From positions 3,968,001 to 4,032,000 of the forward strand of contig OZ245011.1 in NCBI GenBank assembly GCA_965223665.1: a DNA stretch of 64,000 nucleotides, read 5' to 3'. The translations under genes and the position numbers were made by a program. Position 1 is the stretch's first letter, and every line of letters begins with the position of its first letter. Below are positions 24,734 to 37,441 of the stretch, piece by piece. Under the pieces are notes generated by a model that was not told the DNA's origin, made no database searches, and saw only the letters and a list, made by a program, of their open reading frames with translations. The stretch comes from Nitrospinaceae bacterium. GTDB taxonomy: Bacteria > Nitrospinota > Nitrospinia > Nitrospinales > Nitrospinaceae.

Positions 24734-25639
24734 ATGGAAATCTTTAAAACACAAACCCATTTTGATTTTATGGGCAAATTTAAACTGGCCATGTTATTTT
24801 CTGGTCTTTTGATTGTTGCCAGTTTAGTTTCAATTGCTGTCCATGGAGGATTAAGATTTGGAATCGATTTTACGGGAGGGACCCTGGTACAGCTTAAGTT
24901 TCAAAACCCACCCTCTCTGGATACTATTCGGTCTGGATTAAAAGATATAGGTTTGTCTGACAGTGCAATTCAAGAATTCGGATCCAAAAACGATATTCTT
25001 ATTCGTGTGGAGCGCCCGGATGAAAGCCTTGAAGAAATGGGTTCAAAAATTAAGGAAGCCTTAAAAACGAAGATTGGGGGCGGAGAAATTACAGTTGAGC
25101 GAGTGGAAATGGTTGGTCCCAAGGTAGGGGCAGACCTTCGTGAAAAAGCTTTTTTATCTATAATTTATGCAATAATCGGCATAATTATTTATATTTCCTG
25201 GCGGTTTGAATTCCAATATGCCATTGCTGCCATCATTGCTCTCATTCATGATGTAGCTATAACCATGGGTGCCTTTTCGGTTATGAACAAAGAATTTACC
25301 CTGGTAATTGTGGCCGCCTTTTTGACCATTATAGGTTATTCATTGAATGATACTATTGTTGTCTTTGATCGTATTCGTGAAAATTTAAGAAGGCGAGGAA
25401 AAGATTCTTTAGCAACTGTTATTAACACTAGCATCAATCAAACACTTAGCCGAACCCTCCTTACTTCCGGAACTACTTTATTAGTAGTTATTGCCCTGTT
25501 TTTCCTAGGGGGCGAAATTATCCATGACTTCTCTTTTGCTTTATTAATAGGAGTGATTGTGGGTACTTACTCTTCCATTTTTATTGCCAGCGTGTTCTTG
25601 GTCCTTTGGGAAGGTCGAAAAAAAAATAAAAGAGCTTAA
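24734..25639 (+). CDS. secF: Protein translocase subunit SecF
   Basis: GIDFTGG, VGPKVG, HDV, GYSLNDTIVVFDRIRE, GTYSSIFIA. Confidence 0.97.
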   Translation: MEIFKTQTHFDFMGKFKLAMLFSGLLIVASLVSIAVHGGLRFGIDFTGGTLVQLKFQNPPSLDTIRSGLKDIGLSDSAIQEFGSKNDILIRVERPDESLEEMGSKIKEALKTKIGGGEITVERVEMVGPKVGADLREKAFLSIIYAIIGIIIYISWRFEFQYAIAAIIALIHDVAITMGAFSVMNKEFTLVIVAAFLTIIGYSLNDTIVVFDRIRENLRRRGKDSLATVINTSINQTLSRTLLTSGTTLLVVIALFFLGGEIIHDFSFALLIGVIVGTYSSIFIASVFLVLWEGRKKNKRA

Positions 25640-27504
25640 CTTTGATTTTGATTAAGTGGCGTAAGTTTCTGAACGGGTTTAGACCAAGTTATATACCGCC
25701 AAGCTGTCTTAAAGCAAAACTTTGCGAAGGCCCACGAAATCCTTGTCATGGTGGGAAAGCAATGAAAAAATCCTTTAATCAGTTTAATTTTTGGAGCGTG
25801 TCTCATTAGATCGAACATGGCGCCATTAAATACGTCCGTGATTTCAATGGCTTTATGAAAAGTATCAAAATCATCTAATGTCATTGTGATCATACGTATT
25901 TCCGGGGATGAATCTTTATGGACATCGAGATAAATTTGATCCTTTTGCATTCGAAAATGAAATACTACCGATTGTTCACCATCTAATAGAATTCTCAAAG
26001 AAAACTTTCTGATAAATAACATGGAAAACTTAAAGCGTGATTTCATTTTTCTGGATTTTTGGTATTTATTAAAACCCGCTTTATAAAAGTCCCACATGAA
26101 ACTATTGCGCGATTGTTTGTCATCTCGACGTTGGATATCGTATAAAAAAAGCATAATGACGGATATATACATGAAATGAAAAACCATGGCAGGAACAGAT
26201 TTTTGTTTGTTGAAAATAAAAGGAATTCCATGAGTAGCTCCATAGCAATAAGAGAGGAGATTTCTTAATTCGGAGCGTTCCATGTTTTCAAGATGTACAA
26301 CTGTACCGAAATTGTTATAACAATCCCAGTCAAATGAATCGATTAGCTTTTTCTCTTCATATTCCCGGTAAATTTGAGTGCCTGGGTAGGGTGTCATTAC
26401 AAAATAAAGTGCACGATGACCCAGTCCCATCTGTTTAGCAAATTCCGGGTATTTTAAAATATCCTCTTTTGTTTCATGTGGATGGCCAATGATAAGAAAC
26501 CCTTCGCATTTGATCCCGGCTTTTTGAACAATTTCAATAGCAGCCTCATGTTTTTGAATGGATCCACCTTTGCGAAGTCTTTTAAATGTTTCCTTATCAG
26601 GGCTTTCTACACCTACTTGAATTTTGTCAAATCCAATTCGCTTTAATTCTTTCATTAAATGCTTACAGCGAATTACATCGTCAGAACGGGATTCAGTGAT
26701 GATTTTGAAGTTGGTCAGATCATTTTTGAACATCAATTCAACTATTCTTTCCACTCTGTTGGCATCAAACAAGAAAATGGAATCCCAAAATTTGATCGTT
26801 TTTTTAAGATGTTTATTATGGATAAGCTTTAATTCTTCAATGAAATGCTCAGGGCTACGAGCCCTGAACTGTTGGTTCATAGTATCATTGGCGCAAAAAG
26901 TACACTTTGCAATACACCCTCGAGAGCTATAAAGTGTATCGATTGTATAATCGTCCCCATTTTCCCCAAAACGGAGAGGGCGAATACTCCTTAATGGCTG
27001 AGGGAGGCTGTCCATTTCTTGAATAAGGGGTCTATCAATATTATGAATCGGTTCATCCTTTTCTTTAAATGACAAACCTAATACATCTTTGCTGGGACCA
27101 TTGTTCACTAAATCTTTTAAGGTCCAATCCCCCTCACCTCGAATTACTGCATCTACGTTTGGATCTGCAAGAACATCATCCGTTAACGCAGTCGGGTGGT
27201 ATCCACCCATAACTACATAAGCTCCAGCTTCTCGGGCAATTCGGGCATACTGACGTGCATGGTTGTAGCCTCCAGTCATTGTGGATATTCCCACAAAATC
27301 AAATTTGTGATCCTTTAAACTTTTTTCAAATACTTGATAAGGGTTGGTATCGAATGGTGAAACGGGAATAGTTACATACTCGACATCATTTTCGATAACT
27401 GCTCCCAAATAGCAAATTTCCACTAAATCCGAGCAATAGACGTCAATGGGAGGTTCCCAATTTTGTTGGGCCTTTAACAGGGCGATTCGTTTAAAGTAAC
27501 TCAT
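25636..27504 (-). CDS. B12-binding domain radical SAM protein with C-terminal extension
   Basis: VGISTMT, MGGYHPT, IRGEG, SSRGCIAKCTFC, GVES, TPYPGT. Confidence 0.88.
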   Translation of the reverse strand: MSYFKRIALLKAQQNWEPPIDVYCSDLVEICYLGAVIENDVEYVTIPVSPFDTNPYQVFEKSLKDHKFDFVGISTMTGGYNHARQYARIAREAGAYVVMGGYHPTALTDDVLADPNVDAVIRGEGDWTLKDLVNNGPSKDVLGLSFKEKDEPIHNIDRPLIQEMDSLPQPLRSIRPLRFGENGDDYTIDTLYSSRGCIAKCTFCANDTMNQQFRARSPEHFIEELKLIHNKHLKKTIKFWDSIFLFDANRVERIVELMFKNDLTNFKIITESRSDDVIRCKHLMKELKRIGFDKIQVGVESPDKETFKRLRKGGSIQKHEAAIEIVQKAGIKCEGFLIIGHPHETKEDILKYPEFAKQMGLGHRALYFVMTPYPGTQIYREYEEKKLIDSFDWDCYNNFGTVVHLENMERSELRNLLSYCYGATHGIPFIFNKQKSVPAMVFHFMYISVIMLFLYDIQRRDDKQSRNSFMWDFYKAGFNKYQKSRKMKSRFKFSMLFIRKFSLRILLDGEQSVVFHFRMQKDQIYLDVHKDSSPEIRMITMTLDDFDTFHKAIEITDVFNGAMFDLMRHAPKIKLIKGFFHCFPTMTRISWAFAKFCFKTAWRYITWSKPVQKLTPLNQNQS

Positions 27505-27862
27505 AATTATCTCTATGAAAGTAGGAGGGAACCCTAGGAAAACAACCTAGGGAAAAATAAATGACCTTTAAATTTATAGCACAAAATATTTTTTGTGTTT
27601 CTTATTATTATTTTTGTATAGTCTTTTTTGAGAAGTTTTTTCAATAGCTTTGAATATTACTTGGAGTGACTTAAGCATTGATACTGGTTATCATCATAGT
27701 GCCCAAATGGGGTAAAGAAATATCGTGGTTTGATAAGTCATCATTTTTAAAGCAATTAGGCTTTTATGTCTTAAGAATAAAATTGCAAAGACTAATTCGC
27801 CGTGATAAATTCATTCAGGCTTGTTGATATTCGTGACTTAATTTAGGAGCACTATTTAATTT

Positions 27863-28609
27863 ATGAACGTCCAATTACAACGACTAGTTAATCTTCAGGA
27901 ATTGGATATAGAAATTTCCGATCAAAATAAAATTCTGGGAATGATTCCAAAGCAGATTTCCAAGGGAGAATCAGAATTAGAAGAGAAGAAAGGTAAATTA
28001 AACTCGGTTTTGGAAGTTATTGAATCTTTGAAAAAGAATAGATCTCAATTAGAACAAGATGTTGTTGCAGAAAATGACCATATGGCTAAGACTAAAGCCA
28101 AACTCCCAAATATTAAGACCAATAAAGAATACAGCGCCCTTTTATCAGAAGTAGATGCCATTAAGGAAAAAATCAGCGGGATAGAAGAGCGAGAATTAGA
28201 GATAATGGAGGAGCTTGAGGAAAAAGAAAAGGAAATTCCGGGGTTAAAATCAGAATTTGAAGGATACGAAAAAGATTTTCTCATTTATAAAAAGCAAAAA
28301 GAGGAAGAACAAACTCGAGTTCAAAAAGAGTTAGATGAAATGAATAAGAATCGGGACGAATTAATCCAATCTATTGACCCTCCCTTGGTTCGCCATTATG
28401 TAAATGTCATAAAATTGAGAGGAGACCGTGCCGTTGTACTCCTTGAAGGTGAAATTTGCCAAGGTTGTTTTCACCAAATTCGTCCACAGTTAGCAATTGA
28501 GATAAAAAAGGGTGAAGACCTGAATCACTGCCAATATTGTGATCGTTACTTATACTGGGTCCCAAAAACGGAAACTGAGGAACAAACTCAAACTACAGTT
28601 TCGAAGTAG
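27863..28609 (+). CDS. Coiled-coil C4 zinc-ribbon protein (DUF164 / CT398 / HP0958 family)
   Basis: LQELD, KTNKEYSAL, long coiled coil, CQGC...CQYC. Confidence 0.9.
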   Translation: MNVQLQRLVNLQELDIEISDQNKILGMIPKQISKGESELEEKKGKLNSVLEVIESLKKNRSQLEQDVVAENDHMAKTKAKLPNIKTNKEYSALLSEVDAIKEKISGIEERELEIMEELEEKEKEIPGLKSEFEGYEKDFLIYKKQKEEEQTRVQKELDEMNKNRDELIQSIDPPLVRHYVNVIKLRGDRAVVLLEGEICQGCFHQIRPQLAIEIKKGEDLNHCQYCDRYLYWVPKTETEEQTQTTVSK

Positions 28610-28976
28610 ACCAGGCAGTCGCTTTTCTAATCCTTGAGATTAGAACAGAGGAAAGTCCGGGCTCCACAGGGCAGGATACTCTGTAACGCAGAGTGGGGGT
28701 GACCCTAAGGAAAGTGCCGCAGAAAATACACAGCCTACCCGAATGTTTTATTCGGCGGTAAAGGTGAAAAGGTGAGGTAAGAGCTCACCAGTATCGTTGG
28801 TGACAACGGTAGCTTGGTAAACCCTATCCGGAGCAAGATCGAATAGGAAGGCGTTTAAGGGCGGCCCGTCCAATGCTTTCGGGTTGATTGCTTGAGCCTG
28901 TCGGTAACGGCAGGCCTAGATTGATGACTGCCACCTTTGAAAGAAGGAACAGGACCCGGCTTATGGTCTACTTCGA
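28601..28976 (+). ncRNA. rnpB: RNase P RNA, bacterial type A
   Basis: P1 pairing tcgaagtagacc / ggtctacttcga; GAGGAAAGTCCGGGCTCC, GGAAAGTGCC, GGTAAGAGC, GGTAAACCC..GAGCAAG, ACCCGGCTTAT. Confidence 0.97.
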
Positions 28977-28990
28977 TCAAATTATCACGC

Positions 28991-29019
28991 TTTACATCTT
29001 AGAGAACGAATAATAAAAT
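28991..29019 (+). promoter_or_regulatory. Putative sigma70 promoter of the leader peptide operon
   Basis: TTTACA-17 nt-TAAAAT, 21 nt upstream of ATG 29041. Confidence 0.55.
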
Positions 29020-29040
29020 AATTCTATTAGGGGATTTTTT

Positions 29041-29313
29041 ATGATTCGAATGGCTCAAAGAAAAAAATGGATATTGGCGATAGTATTGGCATTGTCAGTA
29101 TTTCTCATGCCTGTCACCCATAGTTTGGCAATGCAATCCAATATGGAAATGGAAAATTGTTCTCCTATTACAAAGTGCGCATCTTGTTCCGTTTCTATTT
29201 CATCTTTTGACCAAATAGGCGATAGCCTTATGCTATCCTTGGATTATATTATTCATCCCTATATCAGTTCTACATTTGTAATTTCAGAACCGCTATACCA
29301 CCCTCCCAAATAA
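29041..29313 (+). CDS. Secreted Cys/Met-rich small protein ending HPPK; CutF/CruR(DUF2946)-like leader peptide candidate
   Basis: Signal peptide (SLA/M), MQSNMEME, CX5CX2C, C-terminal EPLYHPPK; AGGGG RBS. Confidence 0.7.
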   Translation: MIRMAQRKKWILAIVLALSVFLMPVTHSLAMQSNMEMENCSPITKCASCSVSISSFDQIGDSLMLSLDYIIHPYISSTFVISEPLYHPPK

Positions 29314-29423
29314 CTCCTTTTTTTATTATTAATTAACTAATTACAATTTTCCGGTTATTTCGAGTAGCTATTACTCAAAATATATTGGAAAGATGCGTCT
29401 TCGTGAAGAAAAGGAGAAAATTC
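29314..29423 (+). promoter_or_regulatory. Structured intergenic leader with anti-SD able to sequester the downstream RBS
   Basis: ctccttttttt (29314-29324) pairs with aagaaaaggag (29406-29416), 11 bp with one G-U; internal hairpin gagta-gctat-tactc. Confidence 0.6.
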
Positions 29424-30506
29424 ATGAAAATGGACAGATTCGTAAATGGCAGGGTCGTTCCCTACTTGGTATTTCTAGTATTTTTTTTAACAGGTTGTAA
29501 ATTAGAACAGCGTAGCGAGATCTTTCATTTAAGGGGATCTTATAACTATCAATTTTACAAACATCATCCCAAAGATTATACGCTTACCACCGTCGCTCAT
29601 TGGGCTCATGGAAAAATCAGCGATATTTTATTAGAAGCCCCCCCAGACACGATAAAAGCGGACGAAGATTTTTTCAATAAAAGTATATGGTTTTTAAAGC
29701 ATCCATCCAGAGTGGAACCCCACCAAGACTATGTTGCCCCGGTGTTTGCCCGAATGGCCTGGAAGGCCATTCGCGTGGTAGATTGGACCCACCAATTACA
29801 CGAGCAGCTTTACGATATTATGACTGATCCTCGAATTCCCCCAGAGGACAAGAAAAAATGGATCGATCGGTCCGTACAATATTATCTAAGTGAACCTTCC
29901 ATAGCATTTAGTCCAGCTCCTTTTGAAGAAGTCATAATGGATCGAGTTAAATTGATGAGCCAACCTTGGTTCAAAGCATTTCGGACGAAATACCCACGTA
30001 CTACAGAGTTATTTTGGGCCTTCCATTGGTGGCATCCTGCAGTTTATGAAGCACAAATTCTGAATCAAAATTTGAACGATCAAAAACGAGCTATTAAGGC
30101 AATTGACAAACTTTTCCTAAAGGATCCGATAATTAGACCACCCCAGCGTATGCTTTTATCGCGTGAGGTGATGCCTAGATTTAGCCAGCTTACCCCTGAG
30201 GCAGCAAATATTTTTGATAATTTGCATATGTTTCACGGCATAGTTTATGACATTTTAGCTTCCTCCTTGGTCAAAGATAAAAAAAAAGAAATATACAGGA
30301 TGATTGAATTAATGACGGTTCGCCCAGGCGATGGAAAACTTGCAGCTAACTTTTCCACTCCTCATCCTGATATGGACCCACTTCAATATTATGATTGGCT
30401 TCAAGATTCTGGAGGAGAGATGGCTCGAATCATGGGTCATTCCCATAAACAGCATAAACCTTTACATATGAAAACCCAAAAGCATATGAAGGAGGTGCAG
30501 CCATGA
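29424..30506 (+). CDS. Uncharacterised His-rich lipoprotein with internal duplication, putative metal-binding protein
   Basis: AAGGAG RBS; lipobox FLTGC; HWAH...DWTHQLHEQLYDI and HWWH...DNLHMFHGIVYDI; His/Met-rich tail. Confidence 0.78.
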   Translation: MKMDRFVNGRVVPYLVFLVFFLTGCKLEQRSEIFHLRGSYNYQFYKHHPKDYTLTTVAHWAHGKISDILLEAPPDTIKADEDFFNKSIWFLKHPSRVEPHQDYVAPVFARMAWKAIRVVDWTHQLHEQLYDIMTDPRIPPEDKKKWIDRSVQYYLSEPSIAFSPAPFEEVIMDRVKLMSQPWFKAFRTKYPRTTELFWAFHWWHPAVYEAQILNQNLNDQKRAIKAIDKLFLKDPIIRPPQRMLLSREVMPRFSQLTPEAANIFDNLHMFHGIVYDILASSLVKDKKKEIYRMIELMTVRPGDGKLAANFSTPHPDMDPLQYYDWLQDSGGEMARIMGHSHKQHKPLHMKTQKHMKEVQP

Positions 30507-31273
30507 AAAGATCGTATTTGTGGTTGATAGTGATTACCTGCTTCACATTATTAATAATAGGATTCCCTTTTTTAGTTTTTGCTGCAGACCACCGAAATTT
30601 AGAAGAAAACCATCCTACCCGAATCGAAGATGCTTATCCAATTTCCTTTCGATCCTTTGAATTCCAAACCAGAATTGGATATGAAAGTGAAACGGATGTA
30701 GGCAAAGATACAGGTGTTTTTGAGGGGGAATTGAAATGGGGATTTTTGAAAAATGCCCATTTAGTTTTAGGTTTGCCCATTAATTTTGGGAGCAACTTAG
30801 AGCCAGATTTAAACGGAGACGTTCGTTTTGAGAGTTTATACAATTTTAATGTAGAAACTTTAACCCTTCCGGCCTTCGCTTTTAAAGTTGATTTTTTACT
30901 CCCCTTTGGGAATGACTCTCAAGGAATCGATTTAGATTTGGTTGCAATTGCCACAAAGGGGATTGGCCAAAGCCGATTTCATTTCAATGGAATATACAGA
31001 GTTAATGGTGGAAGAGGTCCGGGAGAACGGAGGCATTTATATGTTTTTGGAATAGCGTTTGACCACCCAATAGATTTAGATCATTTATTCACAGCAGATT
31101 TTTTTGTGGAGCAAGCAGAGAGGAAGGGTCAGGAACCCTTTTATAGTTTTGTAATAGGAATGCGAAAGCAAGTAAACCCCTGGTCTGTATTAACTATGGG
31201 AGTTGGGCACGCTTTTGGAAACGATCGTGCAGCAGATTTTATTGCTACTCTTGGTTTTCAGGTAAACTTTTAA
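30503..31273 (+). CDS. Putative outer-membrane beta-barrel / transporter (MetA-pathway porin-like)
   Basis: Signal peptide, alternating amphipathic strands, C-terminal ATLGFQVNF ending in Phe; ATGA overlap with the upstream gene. Confidence 0.72.
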   Translation: MKRSYLWLIVITCFTLLIIGFPFLVFAADHRNLEENHPTRIEDAYPISFRSFEFQTRIGYESETDVGKDTGVFEGELKWGFLKNAHLVLGLPINFGSNLEPDLNGDVRFESLYNFNVETLTLPAFAFKVDFLLPFGNDSQGIDLDLVAIATKGIGQSRFHFNGIYRVNGGRGPGERRHLYVFGIAFDHPIDLDHLFTADFFVEQAERKGQEPFYSFVIGMRKQVNPWSVLTMGVGHAFGNDRAADFIATLGFQVNF

Positions 31274-31288
31274 GAGTGAAATTTATAG

Positions 31289-33064
31289 CTAACTTAAATC
31301 GTATTTTAGTTTAAGTTCTTTCAGTTGCTTGAGGTCAATTTCAGAGGGTGCCTGAGTCATCATACAAATGGCTTTTTGCGTTTTAGGAAATGCGATGACG
31401 TCACGTATAGAGGGGGCTCCGGATAGCAGCATGGCTATTCGATCCAATCCAAAGGCGATTCCTCCATGAGGTGGGGCTCCATATTGGAGAGCATCGAGTA
31501 AGAATCCAAATTTGGCTTCGGCTTCTTCTTTATCGATTCCTAATAATTTGAACATTTTTTCTTGCACTTTCTGCTGATGAATCCGAATGCTTCCCCCGCC
31601 GATTTCATTGCCGTTAAGCACTAAATCATATGCTCGGGCTCGAATTCCGGCCGGGTCCGTTTCAATTTTATCTAAATCTTCTTCAAGAGGGGATGTGAAA
31701 GGATGATGCATGGCTACATATCGTTTTTCTTCATCATCCCATTCTAAAAGAGGGAATTCGGTGACCCATGCCAGGCAAACTTTGGATTCATCAATTAAAT
31801 TCATTTGTTTTGCAATGGCTAAGCGCAAATGGCCTAAAGCATCGGCAACTATTTTGGGTTTGTCGGCACTGAAGACAATTGTGTCACCCACTTCTCCACC
31901 CAACTTTTCGATCATCGCATCCAACATATCTTGTTTGAAAAACTTAATGATTGGAGATTGCAAACCGTCTTTATTGATTTTGATCCAAGCCATACCTTTG
32001 GCGCCATAAACCTTTGCGACTTCTGTTAAATCGTCTAAAACTTTTCTGGAAAGTACTTCTGTGCTTTTTTTGACATTGATGGCTTTGACTTGGCCACCAT
32101 TTTTTAAAGTCTCAGCAAATACTTTAAAATCAGTTCCCTCTACAGTTTCTGTTAAATCAACAAATTCCATTCCAAATCGAAGATCTGGTTTGTCAGATCC
32201 AAACCGGTTTATAGCGTCACGATAATTTAAAATTTGAAATGGAGTTTCGATCTCAATACCTAGAACTTCTCGATAAATATTGGCGATCATTTGTTCTACC
32301 ATTTCAAATAGTAATTCTTCATCAACAAAGGAAAGCTCAATATCAATTTGGGTGAATTCAGGTTGGCGATCATTCCTTAAATCTTCATCTCTAAAACATT
32401 TGACGATTTGGAAATACCGATCCATTCCTGATACCATCAAAATTTGTTTGAATAATTGTGGCGATTGGGGCAGGGCGTAAAATCTTTGTGAATTGATACG
32501 ACTGGGTACTAAATAATCTCGTGCGCCTTCAGGAGTGCTACGAGTCAGCATTGGGGTTTCAATTTCAATAAAGTTTTGTTCATGCAATGAATTGCGTACT
32601 ACGCGAGTAATGTTATATCGCAATTTCATATTTTTTTGCAGTTCATCACCCCGTAAATCCAGATATCGATGTTTGAGTCTTAATGCCTCGCTAACTTCGG
32701 CATTGTCCCATCCAGGGAAAGGAGGAGTTTCTGATTTATTGAGAATGTTCAGATCTTCTACATAAACTTCAATAGAGCCGGTTTTCAACTTGGTATTTAT
32801 CATCTCATCTGGTCGAGCCCTCACATTGCCGGTTACGGCTATCACGTAATTGCCCCGTAGAGATTGGGCTTCCTGATGAGCTAATTGATCGATTTGTGGA
32901 TTCAAAACTACTTGGGTGATTCCATATTTATCCCAAAGATCAATGAAGATCAATCCTCCATGGTCTCGGCGGGTATGAATCCAACCGCACAGGGTTACGC
33001 TTTGACCAATTTGCGAATTGGACAATTCTCCACAATTGTGTGATCTTTTTGAATTGTTTGGCAT
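31289..33064 (-). CDS. aspS: Aspartate--tRNA ligase (possibly non-discriminating Asp/Asn)
   Basis: RRDHGGLIFID, PEGARDYLVPSR, LPQSPQLFKQ, FRDED, GGGSIRIH, PPHGGIAFGLDR; start at ATG 33064 (MPNNSKRSH). Confidence 0.97.
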   Translation of the reverse strand: MPNNSKRSHNCGELSNSQIGQSVTLCGWIHTRRDHGGLIFIDLWDKYGITQVVLNPQIDQLAHQEAQSLRGNYVIAVTGNVRARPDEMINTKLKTGSIEVYVEDLNILNKSETPPFPGWDNAEVSEALRLKHRYLDLRGDELQKNMKLRYNITRVVRNSLHEQNFIEIETPMLTRSTPEGARDYLVPSRINSQRFYALPQSPQLFKQILMVSGMDRYFQIVKCFRDEDLRNDRQPEFTQIDIELSFVDEELLFEMVEQMIANIYREVLGIEIETPFQILNYRDAINRFGSDKPDLRFGMEFVDLTETVEGTDFKVFAETLKNGGQVKAINVKKSTEVLSRKVLDDLTEVAKVYGAKGMAWIKINKDGLQSPIIKFFKQDMLDAMIEKLGGEVGDTIVFSADKPKIVADALGHLRLAIAKQMNLIDESKVCLAWVTEFPLLEWDDEEKRYVAMHHPFTSPLEEDLDKIETDPAGIRARAYDLVLNGNEIGGGSIRIHQQKVQEKMFKLLGIDKEEAEAKFGFLLDALQYGAPPHGGIAFGLDRIAMLLSGAPSIRDVIAFPKTQKAICMMTQAPSEIDLKQLKELKLKYDLS

Positions 33065-33230: not shown

Positions 33231-34670
33231 CTATTCAGGTGAAGTTTCAGGATCGGATGGTTTTTGGAGTTTCTCGGAGGAATTTGAATCATCATCTTCC
33301 TCAGATTGAGAAACAAGGGCTGCAGCTTTTTTCTGAGCTTCTATTTCCCGCTGTTTTTCTTCCATAGCTTTTTTTTCTGCCTGCCATTCAATAACCATTT
33401 GGGGCTTAATCTTTATTGCGACCGGAATATTAACCGTACTGCAGGAACGGACACAAACGCCGCATCCAGTACATGTTTTTTTATTAATAATGGGCTTTTG
33501 ATCCTTTTGAGTAATGACACCAGGGATGGGGCAATCGATTATGCATTGTTGGCAAAAGGTATCACCATAAGCCTGACATTTCTTTTTATCAAGAATGGCA
33601 TAGCCCATTTTTGCTTCTTCTCTTCCCCCGGGGACTGGTAGTAAGGCACCATCTGGGCAAGCAGGAATACAGGGTAAATCATTACACATTACACAAGGAA
33701 CTTTGACTGGGTCGATGTAGGGCGTGTCCATAATAAGGAAGCCGTGTTTCTTAGGAACTCTCTGGATAGCATCTTTCGGACAGGCATTAATGCATTTGTC
33801 ACAACGAGTGCAGGCCTGTAAAAAAGCTCTTTCAGAAATAGCTCCAGGAGGTCTTAAAAGCGGAATTCGTTTTGTGATTTTATCTACGGTTTGATTAACT
33901 TTATCAATTTTACCCTGGATTTTGTCCACCGTAGGTTTCGCAAAAAAATGGACGCTCTTACGCATTAGATTGCGCCGGTTCATCTCAACATCTTCGTCAC
34001 TCCTTTCTTCCTCAGACTCTTCATCGTGATTTTCGTTAGAGTTTGAAGAAGGGATTTCTTGAGTTTGTTCAATAGAGGTTTCTATTTCAGAATCTGGGGT
34101 CTTAGTATCGGAGGATTGTGAATCCAGGTTATTTTTTGCAGCTAGTTTTTCAGCCTTAATTCTTTTCTTTTCTAATTTTCGAGCTTCAATTTCTTCAGGG
34201 TCTTCTAGGGTAGGGTAAAACCGTTCTACCACTCGTCTAAAAAAACCGCGCTTGGGTTTTTCAGTTTCAATAATTTCTGTTTTGGCCTCATTGCCAGTCT
34301 CTTCTAAAGCTTCATTCGATTCAGAGAGATTTTCATTTAAACTATCATTCTGTTCGTTTAATTCTTCTTCCTCTTTAAGGCGTATTTTTTTTCTTTTAAT
34401 TTTTTTTCTTTCTTTTTCTTTTCTGTCTGATTCGTCGGCATATTCTTTGAGTTGATTTAAACTTCCAAATAATCCACGACGAGATATCTCTTGCTGCTCA
34501 ATAGGTTTTTTTAGGGAAGCTTTTAATTTGTGCAAACTTAAAAGATCTTTGTCATCAGAAGAATGGTTTCCTTTTTGATCTTCCGAAATATGATCTTCAT
34601 TCGTTTTTATTTTTGGAGGAAGTTTTTTTCCTTTGAATTTATCTTTATTTAGTTTGTATCGAAGTGACAT
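33231..34670 (-). CDS. NapG/MauM-type four-cluster ferredoxin with long charged N-terminal extension
   Basis: LRPPGA, CTRCDKCINACP, CVMCNDLPCIPACP, CQAY..CQQCIIDCP, CTGCGVCVRSC. Confidence 0.85.
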   Translation of the reverse strand: MSLRYKLNKDKFKGKKLPPKIKTNEDHISEDQKGNHSSDDKDLLSLHKLKASLKKPIEQQEISRRGLFGSLNQLKEYADESDRKEKERKKIKRKKIRLKEEEELNEQNDSLNENLSESNEALEETGNEAKTEIIETEKPKRGFFRRVVERFYPTLEDPEEIEARKLEKKRIKAEKLAAKNNLDSQSSDTKTPDSEIETSIEQTQEIPSSNSNENHDEESEEERSDEDVEMNRRNLMRKSVHFFAKPTVDKIQGKIDKVNQTVDKITKRIPLLRPPGAISERAFLQACTRCDKCINACPKDAIQRVPKKHGFLIMDTPYIDPVKVPCVMCNDLPCIPACPDGALLPVPGGREEAKMGYAILDKKKCQAYGDTFCQQCIIDCPIPGVITQKDQKPIINKKTCTGCGVCVRSCSTVNIPVAIKIKPQMVIEWQAEKKAMEEKQREIEAQKKAAALVSQSEEDDDSNSSEKLQKPSDPETSPE

Positions 34671-35617: not shown

Positions 35618-37441
35618 ATGAAAAAAGTTTTATTAATTTTTCCACCTGAGTGGGTTCCAACTGCACCTTATTTAGCCCTCCCTAGTTTGACGGCTGTATT
35701 ACGTCAAAATGGAATTCAAGTAGTGCAAAAAGATATTAATGTAGAGGCTTTTGAACATTATTTCACTCCTGAATTTTTTCAATTTGTAGAAAACAAGATT
35801 AAGGGGCGACTTAAGAGCTTAAGAGCGAAGCAAAGGGAAGCAGGGCTCAGCGATGAAGAAAGTCAACTTAAAGAAATGCTCACTCAATATACTTTTGTAG
35901 ATTTGCCCTACCATATAGAAAAAGTCCAGCGGGCTAAAGAGATTGTGCGTTCAAAGGAATTTTATGAAGTTGAAAAATTAGAATGGGCTTTAAATTCTTT
36001 TCGTGAAGCGATGGAGTATATATCCGCCTCATATTTTCCTGCGAGTATAAATTTTTATCCGGTTGAAAGTAATTTAAATATTTATCGTCCCTGGGTTTCT
36101 GAGGATCTATTTAAAGCTCCTTATGATGAAGATGTAAATATTTATATTGATCTTTGCAAGCAACTGGTTTTCCCCACAATTGAAAAAGAAAAACCAGATG
36201 TAGTTGGGGTTTCAATTGGAACACCGGTGCAACTGATGTCGGGAATGACGTTTTGCCAATTAATCCGCGAAAAATATCCGGAAATTCATGTGACTGCCGG
36301 TGGAAATATTACCACCCGCTTAAAAGATGAGATTAGCAAAAATAAGAAGTTTTTTGAAAAGGCGTTTCACTCATTGATTTGCTACGAAGGGGAGCATGCC
36401 ATGGTAGAACTGGTAAATGCTCTCGACAAAGGGACCTCTCTAAAAGAGGTTTCAAATCTGATCTGGATGAACGATTCAGGAGAAATCCATGTTAATGAAA
36501 AACTTCATACAGAAAAGGTAAGCGAGTTACCAGTCCCGGACTTTGATGGAATTCCCTGGCATTTATATTTTGCTCCGGAAAAGATTGTGCCTTATTTGGG
36601 GACGCGAGGTTGTTATTGGGGGAAATGCACATTTTGCGATCATGGAGCAGGTTATATTGATCAATTTCGCGCGAAACACGCGGATCAAATGGTTGAAGAG
36701 TTGGCCGAGTTAAAAAGTAAAACGAATGCAAAACACTTTTTGTTTACCGATGAATCGTTTCCGCCTGCCCTGTTTAAAAAGCTTCCACCCATGATGTTAG
36801 ATGCGGGATTGGATATTTATTGGACAACCCTAATTCGGTTTGAATCTTCACTTGTGGAGCCTGAAGTTTGGGAAATAGCTGCAAAATCTGGTTGCCGTTC
36901 TCTTTACTTCGGATTGGAATCAGCCAATGAACGCATAATTAAGTTAGTTAAAAAAGATACAGATATTGATGTGGCAATTCAAAATCTTAATGAGGCAAAA
37001 CGCGTAGGAATTTGGAGTCATGTGATGGGATTTTTTGGTTTTCCAAGTGAAACACAAGAGGAGGCTGAAGACACGCGTCGTTTTTTAATTGATAACCAGG
37101 ATATTATTCACTCCGTAGAAATGTATTTCTTTGTTTTGTATAAACAAGCGCCTGTGATGAAAATGCAAGAAGAAACAAAGATTACGGTTCAATATGATCC
37201 CAATCATGATTTAGCTTTGGATTTTTATTATACCCCTGAAAATGGTCTGACTATTCCTGAGGCGATGAAAAGGTATGAACAGTTTTATAAAGAGGATTTT
37301 CAACCTTGGGCGTTAAGAGTAAATGCCCGTGAACATGTGTATCTTTATATTACTCATTTCGGAACAAATAAGCTTCCTCAGCTTTATGTTAAAAATCAAC
37401 CTTCCTCTGAACGGGAACTTACCTCTGAAGCAATAATTTAA
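35618..37441 (+). CDS. B12-binding domain radical SAM protein
   Basis: LLIFPPEWVPTAPYL, VVGVSI, AGGN, YEGE, TRGCYWGKCTFC (CX4CX2C), FTDE, FGLES, GFPSET. Confidence 0.88.
   Translation: MKKVLLIFPPEWVPTAPYLALPSLTAVLRQNGIQVVQKDINVEAFEHYFTPEFFQFVENKIKGRLKSLRAKQREAGLSDEESQLKEMLTQYTFVDLPYHIEKVQRAKEIVRSKEFYEVEKLEWALNSFREAMEYISASYFPASINFYPVESNLNIYRPWVSEDLFKAPYDEDVNIYIDLCKQLVFPTIEKEKPDVVGVSIGTPVQLMSGMTFCQLIREKYPEIHVTAGGNITTRLKDEISKNKKFFEKAFHSLICYEGEHAMVELVNALDKGTSLKEVSNLIWMNDSGEIHVNEKLHTEKVSELPVPDFDGIPWHLYFAPEKIVPYLGTRGCYWGKCTFCDHGAGYIDQFRAKHADQMVEELAELKSKTNAKHFLFTDESFPPALFKKLPPMMLDAGLDIYWTTLIRFESSLVEPEVWEIAAKSGCRSLYFGLESANERIIKLVKKDTDIDVAIQNLNEAKRVGIWSHVMGFFGFPSETQEEAEDTRRFLIDNQDIIHSVEMYFFVLYKQAPVMKMQEETKITVQYDPNHDLALDFYYTPENGLTIPEAMKRYEQFYKEDFQPWALRVNAREHVYLYITHFGTNKLPQLYVKNQPSSERELTSEAII

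Follow-up and report, generated by a model that had tools for sequence, protein, structure and literature searches.

The 64,000-nucleotide (nt) stretch of a Nitrospinaceae genome analysed here, called the window and used for all coordinates below, contains a small open reading frame (ORF) of 90 amino acids (aa) that probably acts as a metal-responsive translational leader of the CutF type, with copper the most likely metal, for a lipoprotein gene that starts after a gap of 110 nt on the same strand. A first-pass annotation made from the sequence alone had described an export signal, a Met-rich segment, a C-x5-C-x2-C motif and the C-terminus EPLYHPPK before a TAA stop codon, and had pointed out that the 11 nt after the stop (CUCCUUUUUUU) are complementary to the Shine-Dalgarno (SD) region of the next gene (AAGAAAAGGAG), with smaller hairpins enclosed; all of these features are confirmed in the sequence (Table 1). 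Inferred in this reading are export, the pause, which metal is involved, whether it switches the genes on or off, and where it is sensed.

The export signal of the leader, with its basic n-region and a hydrophobic core of 16 residues, recurs across the alignment of the family described below. Using a 47-sequence alignment, AlphaFold predicts residues 2-29 as the sole helix of the peptide and gives residues 30-90 no predicted structure (predicted local distance difference test score, pLDDT, 64.6; predicted template-modelling score, pTM, 0.30). The C-terminal motif is rare in the window genome: of the 6579 six-frame ORFs with 60 aa or more, 24 have PP plus one residue at the end, and a single one, the leader ORF, has HPP plus one residue there. 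No Pfam or NCBIfam family matched the leader protein. A reading of it as the precursor of a ribosomally synthesised and post-translationally modified peptide was dropped, adjacent modification enzymes being absent.

Table 1. Features of the leader locus and its flanking genes, in window coordinates.
Feature	Position	Strand	Basis or remark
Class-A RNase P RNA gene (rnpB)	28603-28978	+	328 bits, Rfam; directly upstream of the promoter-like site and leader
Putative promoter, TTTACA-17 nt-TAAAAT, between the rnpB end and the leader ORF	28991-29019	+	10/12 matches
SD-like AGGGGA of the leader ORF, 6 nt 5' of its ATG (putative)	29029-29034	+	read from sequence
Leader ORF, 90 aa + TAA (29311-29313)	29041-29313	+	Nitrospinota family of ~90-aa exported Cys-triad/HPP-terminal peptides
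Export signal, residues 1-30 (MIRMAQRKKW, basic n-region RKK, hydrophobic core, HSLA before Met31)	29041-29130	+	read from sequence; presumed cleavage
Met-rich stretch MQSNMEMEN and C40-x5-C46-x2-C49, putative metal-binding site	29131-29187	+	Cys invariant in family
Y86-H87-P88-P89-K90-stop (C-terminus EPLYHPPK), putative pause module	29296-29313	+	P88, P89 invariant in family
Anti-SD arm CUCCUUUUUUU, begins at first base after stop	29314-29324	+	predicted fold, duplex scoring
Three enclosed hairpins (~29330-29343, 29348-29391, 29395-29404)	29330-29404	+	minimum-free-energy structure
SD arm AAGAAAAGGAG, GGAG at 29413-29416, 7 nt before next ATG (29424)	29406-29416	+	sequence, predicted fold
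Target gene 1, 360-aa lipoprotein, lipobox LTGC, all-alpha, four invariant HxxH pairs	29424-30506	+	sequence, alignment, AlphaFold
Target gene 2, 256-aa exported protein ending FQVNF, start overlaps gene 1 stop	30503-31273	+	ORF list

Relatives of the lipoprotein gene were sampled at 17 loci from species-representative genomes and 10 from metagenomes, and the expectation that leader ORFs with CXXC and a terminal PP would recur upstream of homologues was borne out at five of these lipoprotein-type loci (L004, L005, L021, L022 and L023), each with an ORF of 90-91 aa at the equivalent place. Outside the sister genus the five are 29-34% identical to the window ORF, and all of them retain the signal, M35, the Cys triad, S62-L63/S66-L67 and Y-H-P-P plus one residue and the stop. 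Substitutions at codon positions 1, 2 and 3 number 13, 4 and 24 between the window and L004 and 24, 10 and 45 between L005 and L022, and the His and Pro codons of the C-terminal motif differ synonymously among loci; this bias to the third position and the synonymous His and Pro codons argue for selection on the peptide. By these measures the leader ORF is a genuine conserved coding sequence.

A word-index homologue search with the leader gave no match. When 1.84 billion cluster representatives were searched exhaustively with a profile, 13 proteins came up at E ≤ 0.001; each has about 90 aa, C-x5-C-x2-C and HPP (RPP in one) plus one residue, and one of them has four extra residues. Scanning 185,579 species genomes with a fixed-spacing DNA pattern produced 22 matches, namely 14 leader ORFs and 8 chance matches without an ORF; 13 of the 14 lie in genomes labelled Nitrospinota and one in a metagenome-assembled genome (MAG) labelled Alphaproteobacteria. 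The leader and CusC-like gene on the contig of that MAG (L042) closely resemble Nitrospinota ones (cf. L043, L051), and the contig may be mis-binned or the product of transfer. Within the phylum a profile search detected the family in 55 of 120 Nitrospinota genomes (36 of the 57 high-quality ones), confined to four families of one order, with none among 18 genomes of five other families. The window genome has a single copy and no second match to the family profile at E ≤ 0.1. One genome (G055) has three members within 6 kb (contig C26, ~39.9-45.9 kb) and a fourth elsewhere; one of the three, L061, has no target gene within 360 nt.

In the alignment of 47 members, whose mean column identity is 24%, nothing is invariant except C40, C46, C49, P88 and P89. 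C-x5-C-x2-C is found in 46 of 48 distinct members, the last Cys lies 38 residues from the final PP in 44 (37 in two, 40 in two), and exactly one residue follows PP in 42, though this 48-member set was partly recruited by a pattern or regular expression that requires motif and spacing features; among the members found by profile only, the 38-residue spacing holds in 37/41 and the single residue after PP in 35/41. The C-terminal motif is YHPP in 38/48, the remainder having DHPP, FHPP, IHPP, ERPP, IRPP or (three) xPPP, and these HPPx, RPPx and PPPx variants point to Pro-Pro as the retained element. The final residue is R in 25 members, Q in 7, K in 6 and G in 4. Mean majority-residue frequency is 0.82 in the C-terminal pentapeptide and 0.31 in the 35-residue linker. 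Two motifs joined by a fixed ruler of free, apparently unstructured chain form a pattern known from DUF2946 leaders (PMC9426467) and not expected of a folded periplasmic protein.

The genes that follow the leader elsewhere point to copper. At the 30 loci of the phylum search, the next gene encodes an outer-membrane factor (OEP/CusC-like, 51-100% identical to that of locus L033) in 23, a multicopper oxidase in two, the HxxH lipoprotein (with the barrel gene), as in the window, in three and a response-regulator-like ORF, 360 nt away, in one, while one leader stands at a contig end with no gene after it. By Pfam, the L033 genes (OEP, HlyD_D23 plus a heavy-metal-binding domain (HMBD), ACR_tran) form a cusCBA-like system, and the gene at L032 is a three-domain multicopper oxidase (Cu-oxidase domains). 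The leader is in first position ahead of a CusC-like OEP or multicopper-oxidase gene in 25/30 loci, and genes of these two kinds are also the commonest neighbours given in the available text of a survey of CutF-like leaders (PMC9973294). Lipoprotein homologues also occur without a leader: L006-L010 have none upstream, the place being taken by an ORF of 259-273 aa in L006, L007 and L010 (by eye, it looks like a menaquinone-pathway radical S-adenosylmethionine (SAM) gene) and by a Rap1a-like gene in L008 and L009. The MAG of L007 has its lipoprotein gene without a leader, yet carries two leaders on cus-type operons (L038, L051). On this distribution the leader cassette is facultative and portable. 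The window genome itself has no close CusB; its best match, at 28% identity, belongs to a distant czcCBA-like resistance-nodulation-division operon (L086, G000:C1:3062502-3066152).

In the RNA, the helix between the region just past the leader stop and the SD of the lipoprotein gene, which the first-pass annotation had proposed to check by folding, is present in both the minimum-free-energy (MFE) and the centroid structure of 29290-29440 predicted by RNAfold, as 11 base pairs enclosing three hairpins (MFE -27.9 kcal/mol; shuffled sequences average -20.7, giving z = -2.09, and 7 of the 200 fold as stably). When all intergenic 16-mers were compared for pairing with the initiation region (-20 to +15), the one directly after the stop gave the top duplex in the window, none of the 58 others equalling it; at -13.0 kcal/mol, against -8.7 +/- 2.0 for its own shuffles, it was equalled by 2.8% of them. 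All six lipoprotein-type loci (the window and its five relatives) behave alike: out of 47-66 intergenic 16-mers in each, the post-stop one pairs best with the initiation region, and it outscores 97-100% of its own mononucleotide shuffles. In these six the polypyrimidine arm begins 0-1 nt after the stop, with 9.5-11.8 expected ensemble pairs with the SD region, which lies 99-118 nt downstream of the leader stop; a central hairpin is predicted in the other five as well, with a different sequence. RNAalifold returned the helix as the consensus structure of the six, with 12 pairs, two of them showing double changes.

The effect of a ribosome at the stop was modelled by blocking the 15 nt that follow it and reading out the mean unpaired probability of the SD. 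Accessibility rose from 0.30 to 0.997 in the window, 0.15 to 0.63 in L005, 0.33 to 0.63 in L021, 0.02 to 0.45 in L022 and 0.25 to 0.84 in L023. Beyond the lipoprotein-type loci, no 16-mer complements the initiation region better than the post-stop one in 9 of 26 Cus-type loci -- L040, L044, L049 and L050 (4/11) and L068, L070, L071, L072 and L074 (5/15) -- where the arms are GC-rich and unrelated in sequence to those of the window. (The multicopper-oxidase loci L077 and L079 were excluded from this count because of a wrong start-codon pick.) By these predictions, the stop-adjacent anti-SD is frequent in the leader family and is the rule within the window's lipoprotein-type subgroup.

These features suggest the following mechanism. 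Transcripts from a promoter just downstream of rnpB would have the 90-aa ORF translated, its signal peptide bringing the nascent chain to the Sec translocon, with the Cys triad C40/C46/C49 and flanking Met residues as the putative sensor and the invariant H-P-P plus one residue and the stop as the putative pause module. As long as no ribosome is in the way, the 11 nt after the stop would be paired with the lipoprotein SD ~90 nt downstream and initiation there would be poor; a ribosome lingering at the stop or on the two or three codons before it would occupy or unwind the anti-SD arm and free the SD, so that lipoprotein and barrel output would track ribosome dwell time. Metal bound to the triad in the nascent chain, at its constant distance of 38 residues from PP, would lengthen the dwell and turn the genes on, the direction known for CutF, which is preferred here because the leader family elsewhere precedes efflux and oxidase genes. 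The triad lies 38-47 residues from PP and, by the dimensions of the ribosome tunnel and SecY, would be near the tunnel exit or the SecY entry as PP is decoded; sensing may take place in the periplasm (CutF-like and signal-dependent) or at the ribosome exit (CruR-like and signal-independent).

Several points weigh against this reading. The first helix base lies 12 nt from the first base of the Pro88 codon in the window (12-13 nt across loci), and a ribosome's footprint or helicase position reaches about +11 to +15 from the P-site codon; a stall with Pro88 in the P site might only abut the helix, with few pairs opened. Pro89 or Lys90 in the P site (in the latter case with the stop in the A site) would open at least 3-6 pairs, including the CUCC that masks GGAG, and the strictness with which one codon separates PP from the stop suggests that the pause may fall at PP-x or at termination. 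The helix would also open briefly for any ribosome in the course of translation, with no regulated arrest needed, and YHPP stands outside the characterised RxPP and R/HxPP arrest motifs, its basic residue being at -1, not -2. The folding z-score of the window element (-2.09) is modest. In the blocking model the proposal that a ribosome at the stop would free the SD holds for the window and four relatives but fails in L004, where accessibility went from 0.36 to 0.32 (a gain in 5/6 loci). The covariation suggested as a check did not materialise either: in the six-sequence alignment a strict count gave 85.7% paired against 85.3% with shuffled partners (284 of 500 shuffles reaching the observed value). 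The count is insignificant because the arms are nearly homopyrimidine and homopurine; a register control does favour the helix, pairing falling to 50-69% when the arms are slid by 1-3 columns. Finally, the post-stop segment is not the best complement in 17 of the 26 Cus-type loci, nor at the multicopper-oxidase locus L032, so the stop-adjacent anti-SD is not universal in the family.

The same figures bear on a reading of the pairing as coincidence, in which the complementarity of a U-rich post-stop tract to an A/G-rich SD is an accident of an AT-rich genome and the C-terminus plays no part in regulation. Both arms are of low complexity, the covariation counts equal those of shuffles and a small fraction of window 16-mer shuffles pair equally well, as such an accident would have it; the recurrence of the pairing in 6/6 loci as the best of 47-66 segments each time, its reappearance with unrelated GC-rich arms in nine Cus-type loci, and the invariance of the terminal PP across sequences of 24% identity make this explanation very improbable.

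Plain translational coupling deserves more attention, though it too is unlikely. Here the small protein would be a functional periplasmic copper-binding peptide or chaperone, and the helix would only couple lipoprotein translation to the upstream ORF, for example by juxtaposing the stop and the next start, with no metal-regulated arrest. The base of the helix does bring the stop codon beside the SD and start, any terminating ribosome would open it, Cys triad and Met are typical metal ligands and the leader gene is always first in envelope copper operons. A mature chaperone would, however, leave unexplained why invariance is restricted to the Cys triad and a terminal PP that in 42/48 members stands one residue before the stop; moreover, the mature part has no predicted fold, its linker is poorly conserved yet fixed in length, and the cassette is facultative, being absent at L006-L010 and, in one MAG, present on the cus-type operons L038 and L051 but not at L007.

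Control of transcription in the manner of CruR is a third alternative: a paused ribosome would block Rho or another terminator in the 110-nt intergenic region, metal would relieve the pause and the operon would be switched off. CruR, another leader with CXXC and PP, acts in this way with an intergenic region of 162 nt, according to the available text of PMC9426467, and the intergenic regions here measure 99-118 nt. What recurs at these loci is instead a post-stop segment that pairs with the SD, and a sequence scan between leader and lipoprotein gene, which did not extend to Rho sites, found no terminator-like site. The family also mostly precedes efflux and oxidase genes, expected to be copper-induced rather than repressed. 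Such control is considered quite improbable.

A bolder proposal can be entertained tentatively, though it is more doubtful than not: that YHPPx-stop represents a new class of metal-gated pause, acting at or one codon before termination and not as a RAPP-type elongation arrest, that it travels as a portable cassette among cusCBA, multicopper-oxidase and lipoprotein operons, and that it marks the lipoprotein/barrel pair, which occurs in MAGs of Nitrospinota, Nitrospirota, Planctomycetota and Verrucomicrobiota, as an unrecognised envelope copper system. Its ruler on the mRNA side would be the single codon from PP to the stop together with an anti-SD that begins within 0-1 nt of the stop, which would place the helix 12-13 nt from the first Pro codon; that on the peptide side would be the fixed 38 residues to the Cys triad.

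The presence of the leader on cusCBA and multicopper-oxidase genes in relatives provides a functional lead for the lipoprotein/barrel module, which none of the databases searched annotates. The lipoprotein matched no Pfam or NCBIfam family, and none of its 315 relatives at E ≤ 0.001 is named; they come from MAGs labelled Nitrospinota, Nitrospirota, Planctomycetota, Verrucomicrobiota (Opitutaceae, Limisphaerales) and others. The pairs H59/H62, H123/H126, H201/H204 and H268/H271 are invariant in 35 aligned lipoproteins. Its AlphaFold model is confident (pLDDT 86.2, pTM 0.82) and all-alpha; Foldseek matched it to no PDB structure at E ≤ 0.001 (template-modelling scores 0.10-0.19), and the Atlas gave unnamed clusters only; on this model it may be a new metal-binding fold. 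The 256-aa gene adjoins the lipoprotein gene in 23/27 loci, the contigs of the other four ending first. Its product has no Pfam match at E ≤ 1, including PF13557 (Phenol_MetA_deg barrels), no NCBIfam match, and in the PDB only 4rl8_A at E = 0.46, while its nearest Atlas clusters in a language-model neighbourhood carry PF13557 (score 0.98); as a lead, it is a probable outer-membrane beta-barrel.

In other phyla, a YHS-domain ORF lies directly upstream of lipoprotein homologues at L026:862-1023 and L027:1973-2134, and Cys-rich DUF326-type ORFs are so placed at L017:2167-2847. These neighbours suggest a link of the lipoprotein module to copper that is independent of the leader, and together with the leader they point to a possible copper role for the lipoprotein/barrel pair. 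At four Nitrospirota loci (L011:1795-2124, L012:2475-2834, L013:2073-2564 and L014:2408-2869) the lipoprotein operon is preceded by another small exported ORF, His-rich, with HHCPDS and ending in (P)PR[YH]LLL plus five residues, for which no Pfam family was found; this may be another type of leader, unrelated to the first, that serves the module.

Across 27500-31500, an Rfam scan matched only the RNase P RNA upstream of the leader. The order rnpB-leader-lipoprotein is preserved in L004, L021 and L023 and probably in L005, where the same spurious ORF lies within rnpB. The promoter-like site is the top-scoring one across 28900-31500, a region in which such sites show no excess (6 against 7.2 in shuffles); both of its hexamers are retained in L004, the spacer having diverged. 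The only minus-strand ORF of at least 40 aa listed for 28991-29426 is that at 28855-28980, which spans most of the 3' end of the RNase P RNA gene. Further away in the window, two large ORFs at 25636-27504 (-) and 35618-37441 (+), of 622 and 607 aa, have CxxxCxxC radical-SAM-like motifs (GCIAKCTFC and GCYWGKCTFC), and a 479-aa ORF at 33231-34670 (-) combines a long N-terminal half rich in Lys, Glu and Ser with several ferredoxin-type Cys clusters in the C-terminal half.

Nitrospinota are the main marine nitrite oxidisers. To our knowledge, copper-sensing leader peptides (CutF, CruR) have been described only in 2021-2025, almost all of them DUF2946 members of Pseudomonadota and Bacteroidota. The present family would carry the principle of the copper leader into Nitrospinota with a YHPPx-stop motif and spacing of its own, and as a separate family it may serve as an independent natural experiment on the essential features of such sensors. 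The stop-adjacent anti-SD makes the predicted mRNA geometry unusually explicit and simple to mutate.

Among known systems, the closest parallel is CutF of Rhodobacter capsulatus (cutFOG) and the class of CutF-like leaders, as described in the available portions of PMC9973294 and the preprint 10.1101/2025.02.05.636593. Like CutF, the window element is a small ORF whose product has a Sec-type signal, Cys residues arranged as a metal motif and, at its C-terminus, a proline motif; it stands first in a copper operon (as judged from its relatives) and is followed by an mRNA structure that would shield the SD of the next gene. Held against the rule for CutF-like leaders in the available text of PMC9973294, it has fewer than 150 aa (90), PP within the last 15 residues (88-89), a signal, a same-strand gene within 1000 nt (at 110 nt) and, by prediction in the window and in 6/6 close loci, an intergenic stem-loop shielding the SD. 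It differs from CutF in having C-x5-C-x2-C where CutF has CxxxC, YHPP plus one residue and the stop where CutF has a PPP-containing motif, a Nitrospinota host, an anti-SD starting from the first base after the stop, and as targets an unnamed HxxH lipoprotein and barrel; these are not of the CutO or TonB-receptor types, in agreement with the first-pass annotation.

The second comparison is with CruR (Bp2923) of Bordetella pertussis, a DUF2946 (PF11162) leader in which, in the available text of PMC9426467, control is by Rho-dependent termination and copper relieves the stall. In both, an upstream ORF that heads copper-related operons encodes an export signal, CXXC and a C-proximal Pro-Pro, the distance between the last two being tightly conserved. 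RAPP of CruR, however, is three residues from the end and YHPP here only one; CruR has 45 residues from CXXC to RAPP, against 36 here from CxxC to YHPP (38 to PP); and the RNA feature here is a helix that would sequester the SD, in place of Rho-dependent termination. DUF2946 leaders in general are described in the same text as having two motifs at a fixed spacing of ~45 residues (+/-1-2) from CXXC to RAPP. The present family does have CXXC (C46-x2-C49 in 47/47, plus the invariant C40), the export signal and the first position in copper operons, but RAPP occurs in 0/48 members. The PF11162 hidden Markov model (cut-off 23.7 bits) gave no match to the window protein at E ≤ 1, to any of six members at E ≤ 10 or in the whole genome at E ≤ 1. 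The only DUF2946 member obtained from five other genomes searched, L085, has a spacing of 46 residues against 38 in the leader family, and against this single template, on which the profile comparison rests, hhalign gave the 18-sequence leader profile a probability of 0.7%, with CxxC alone aligned. By model, motif and spacing, the family falls outside DUF2946.

A looser resemblance is to the arrest peptides SecM, ApdA, ApdP and ApcA, with RAPP-like or RxPP motifs, which are presented in the available text of PMC10951233 and PMC12992588 as an arrest core combined with N-terminal regulator modules. Like these, the leader ends in x-x-P-P within a small exported protein encoded upstream of the gene thought to be regulated; RxPP and R/HxPP motifs (PMC10951233, available text) have Arg or His at -2 from the P-site Pro, whereas here Tyr is at -2 (38/48) and His or Arg at -1. 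A literature search, supplementary lists excluded, found no published description of YHPP arrest activity or a YHPP-type leader, nor of copper leaders in Nitrospina. Judged by its sequence, the element belongs to a leader family of its own, with a distinct motif and distinct rulers, found in a phylum new to such leaders and tied here to an unannotated target module.

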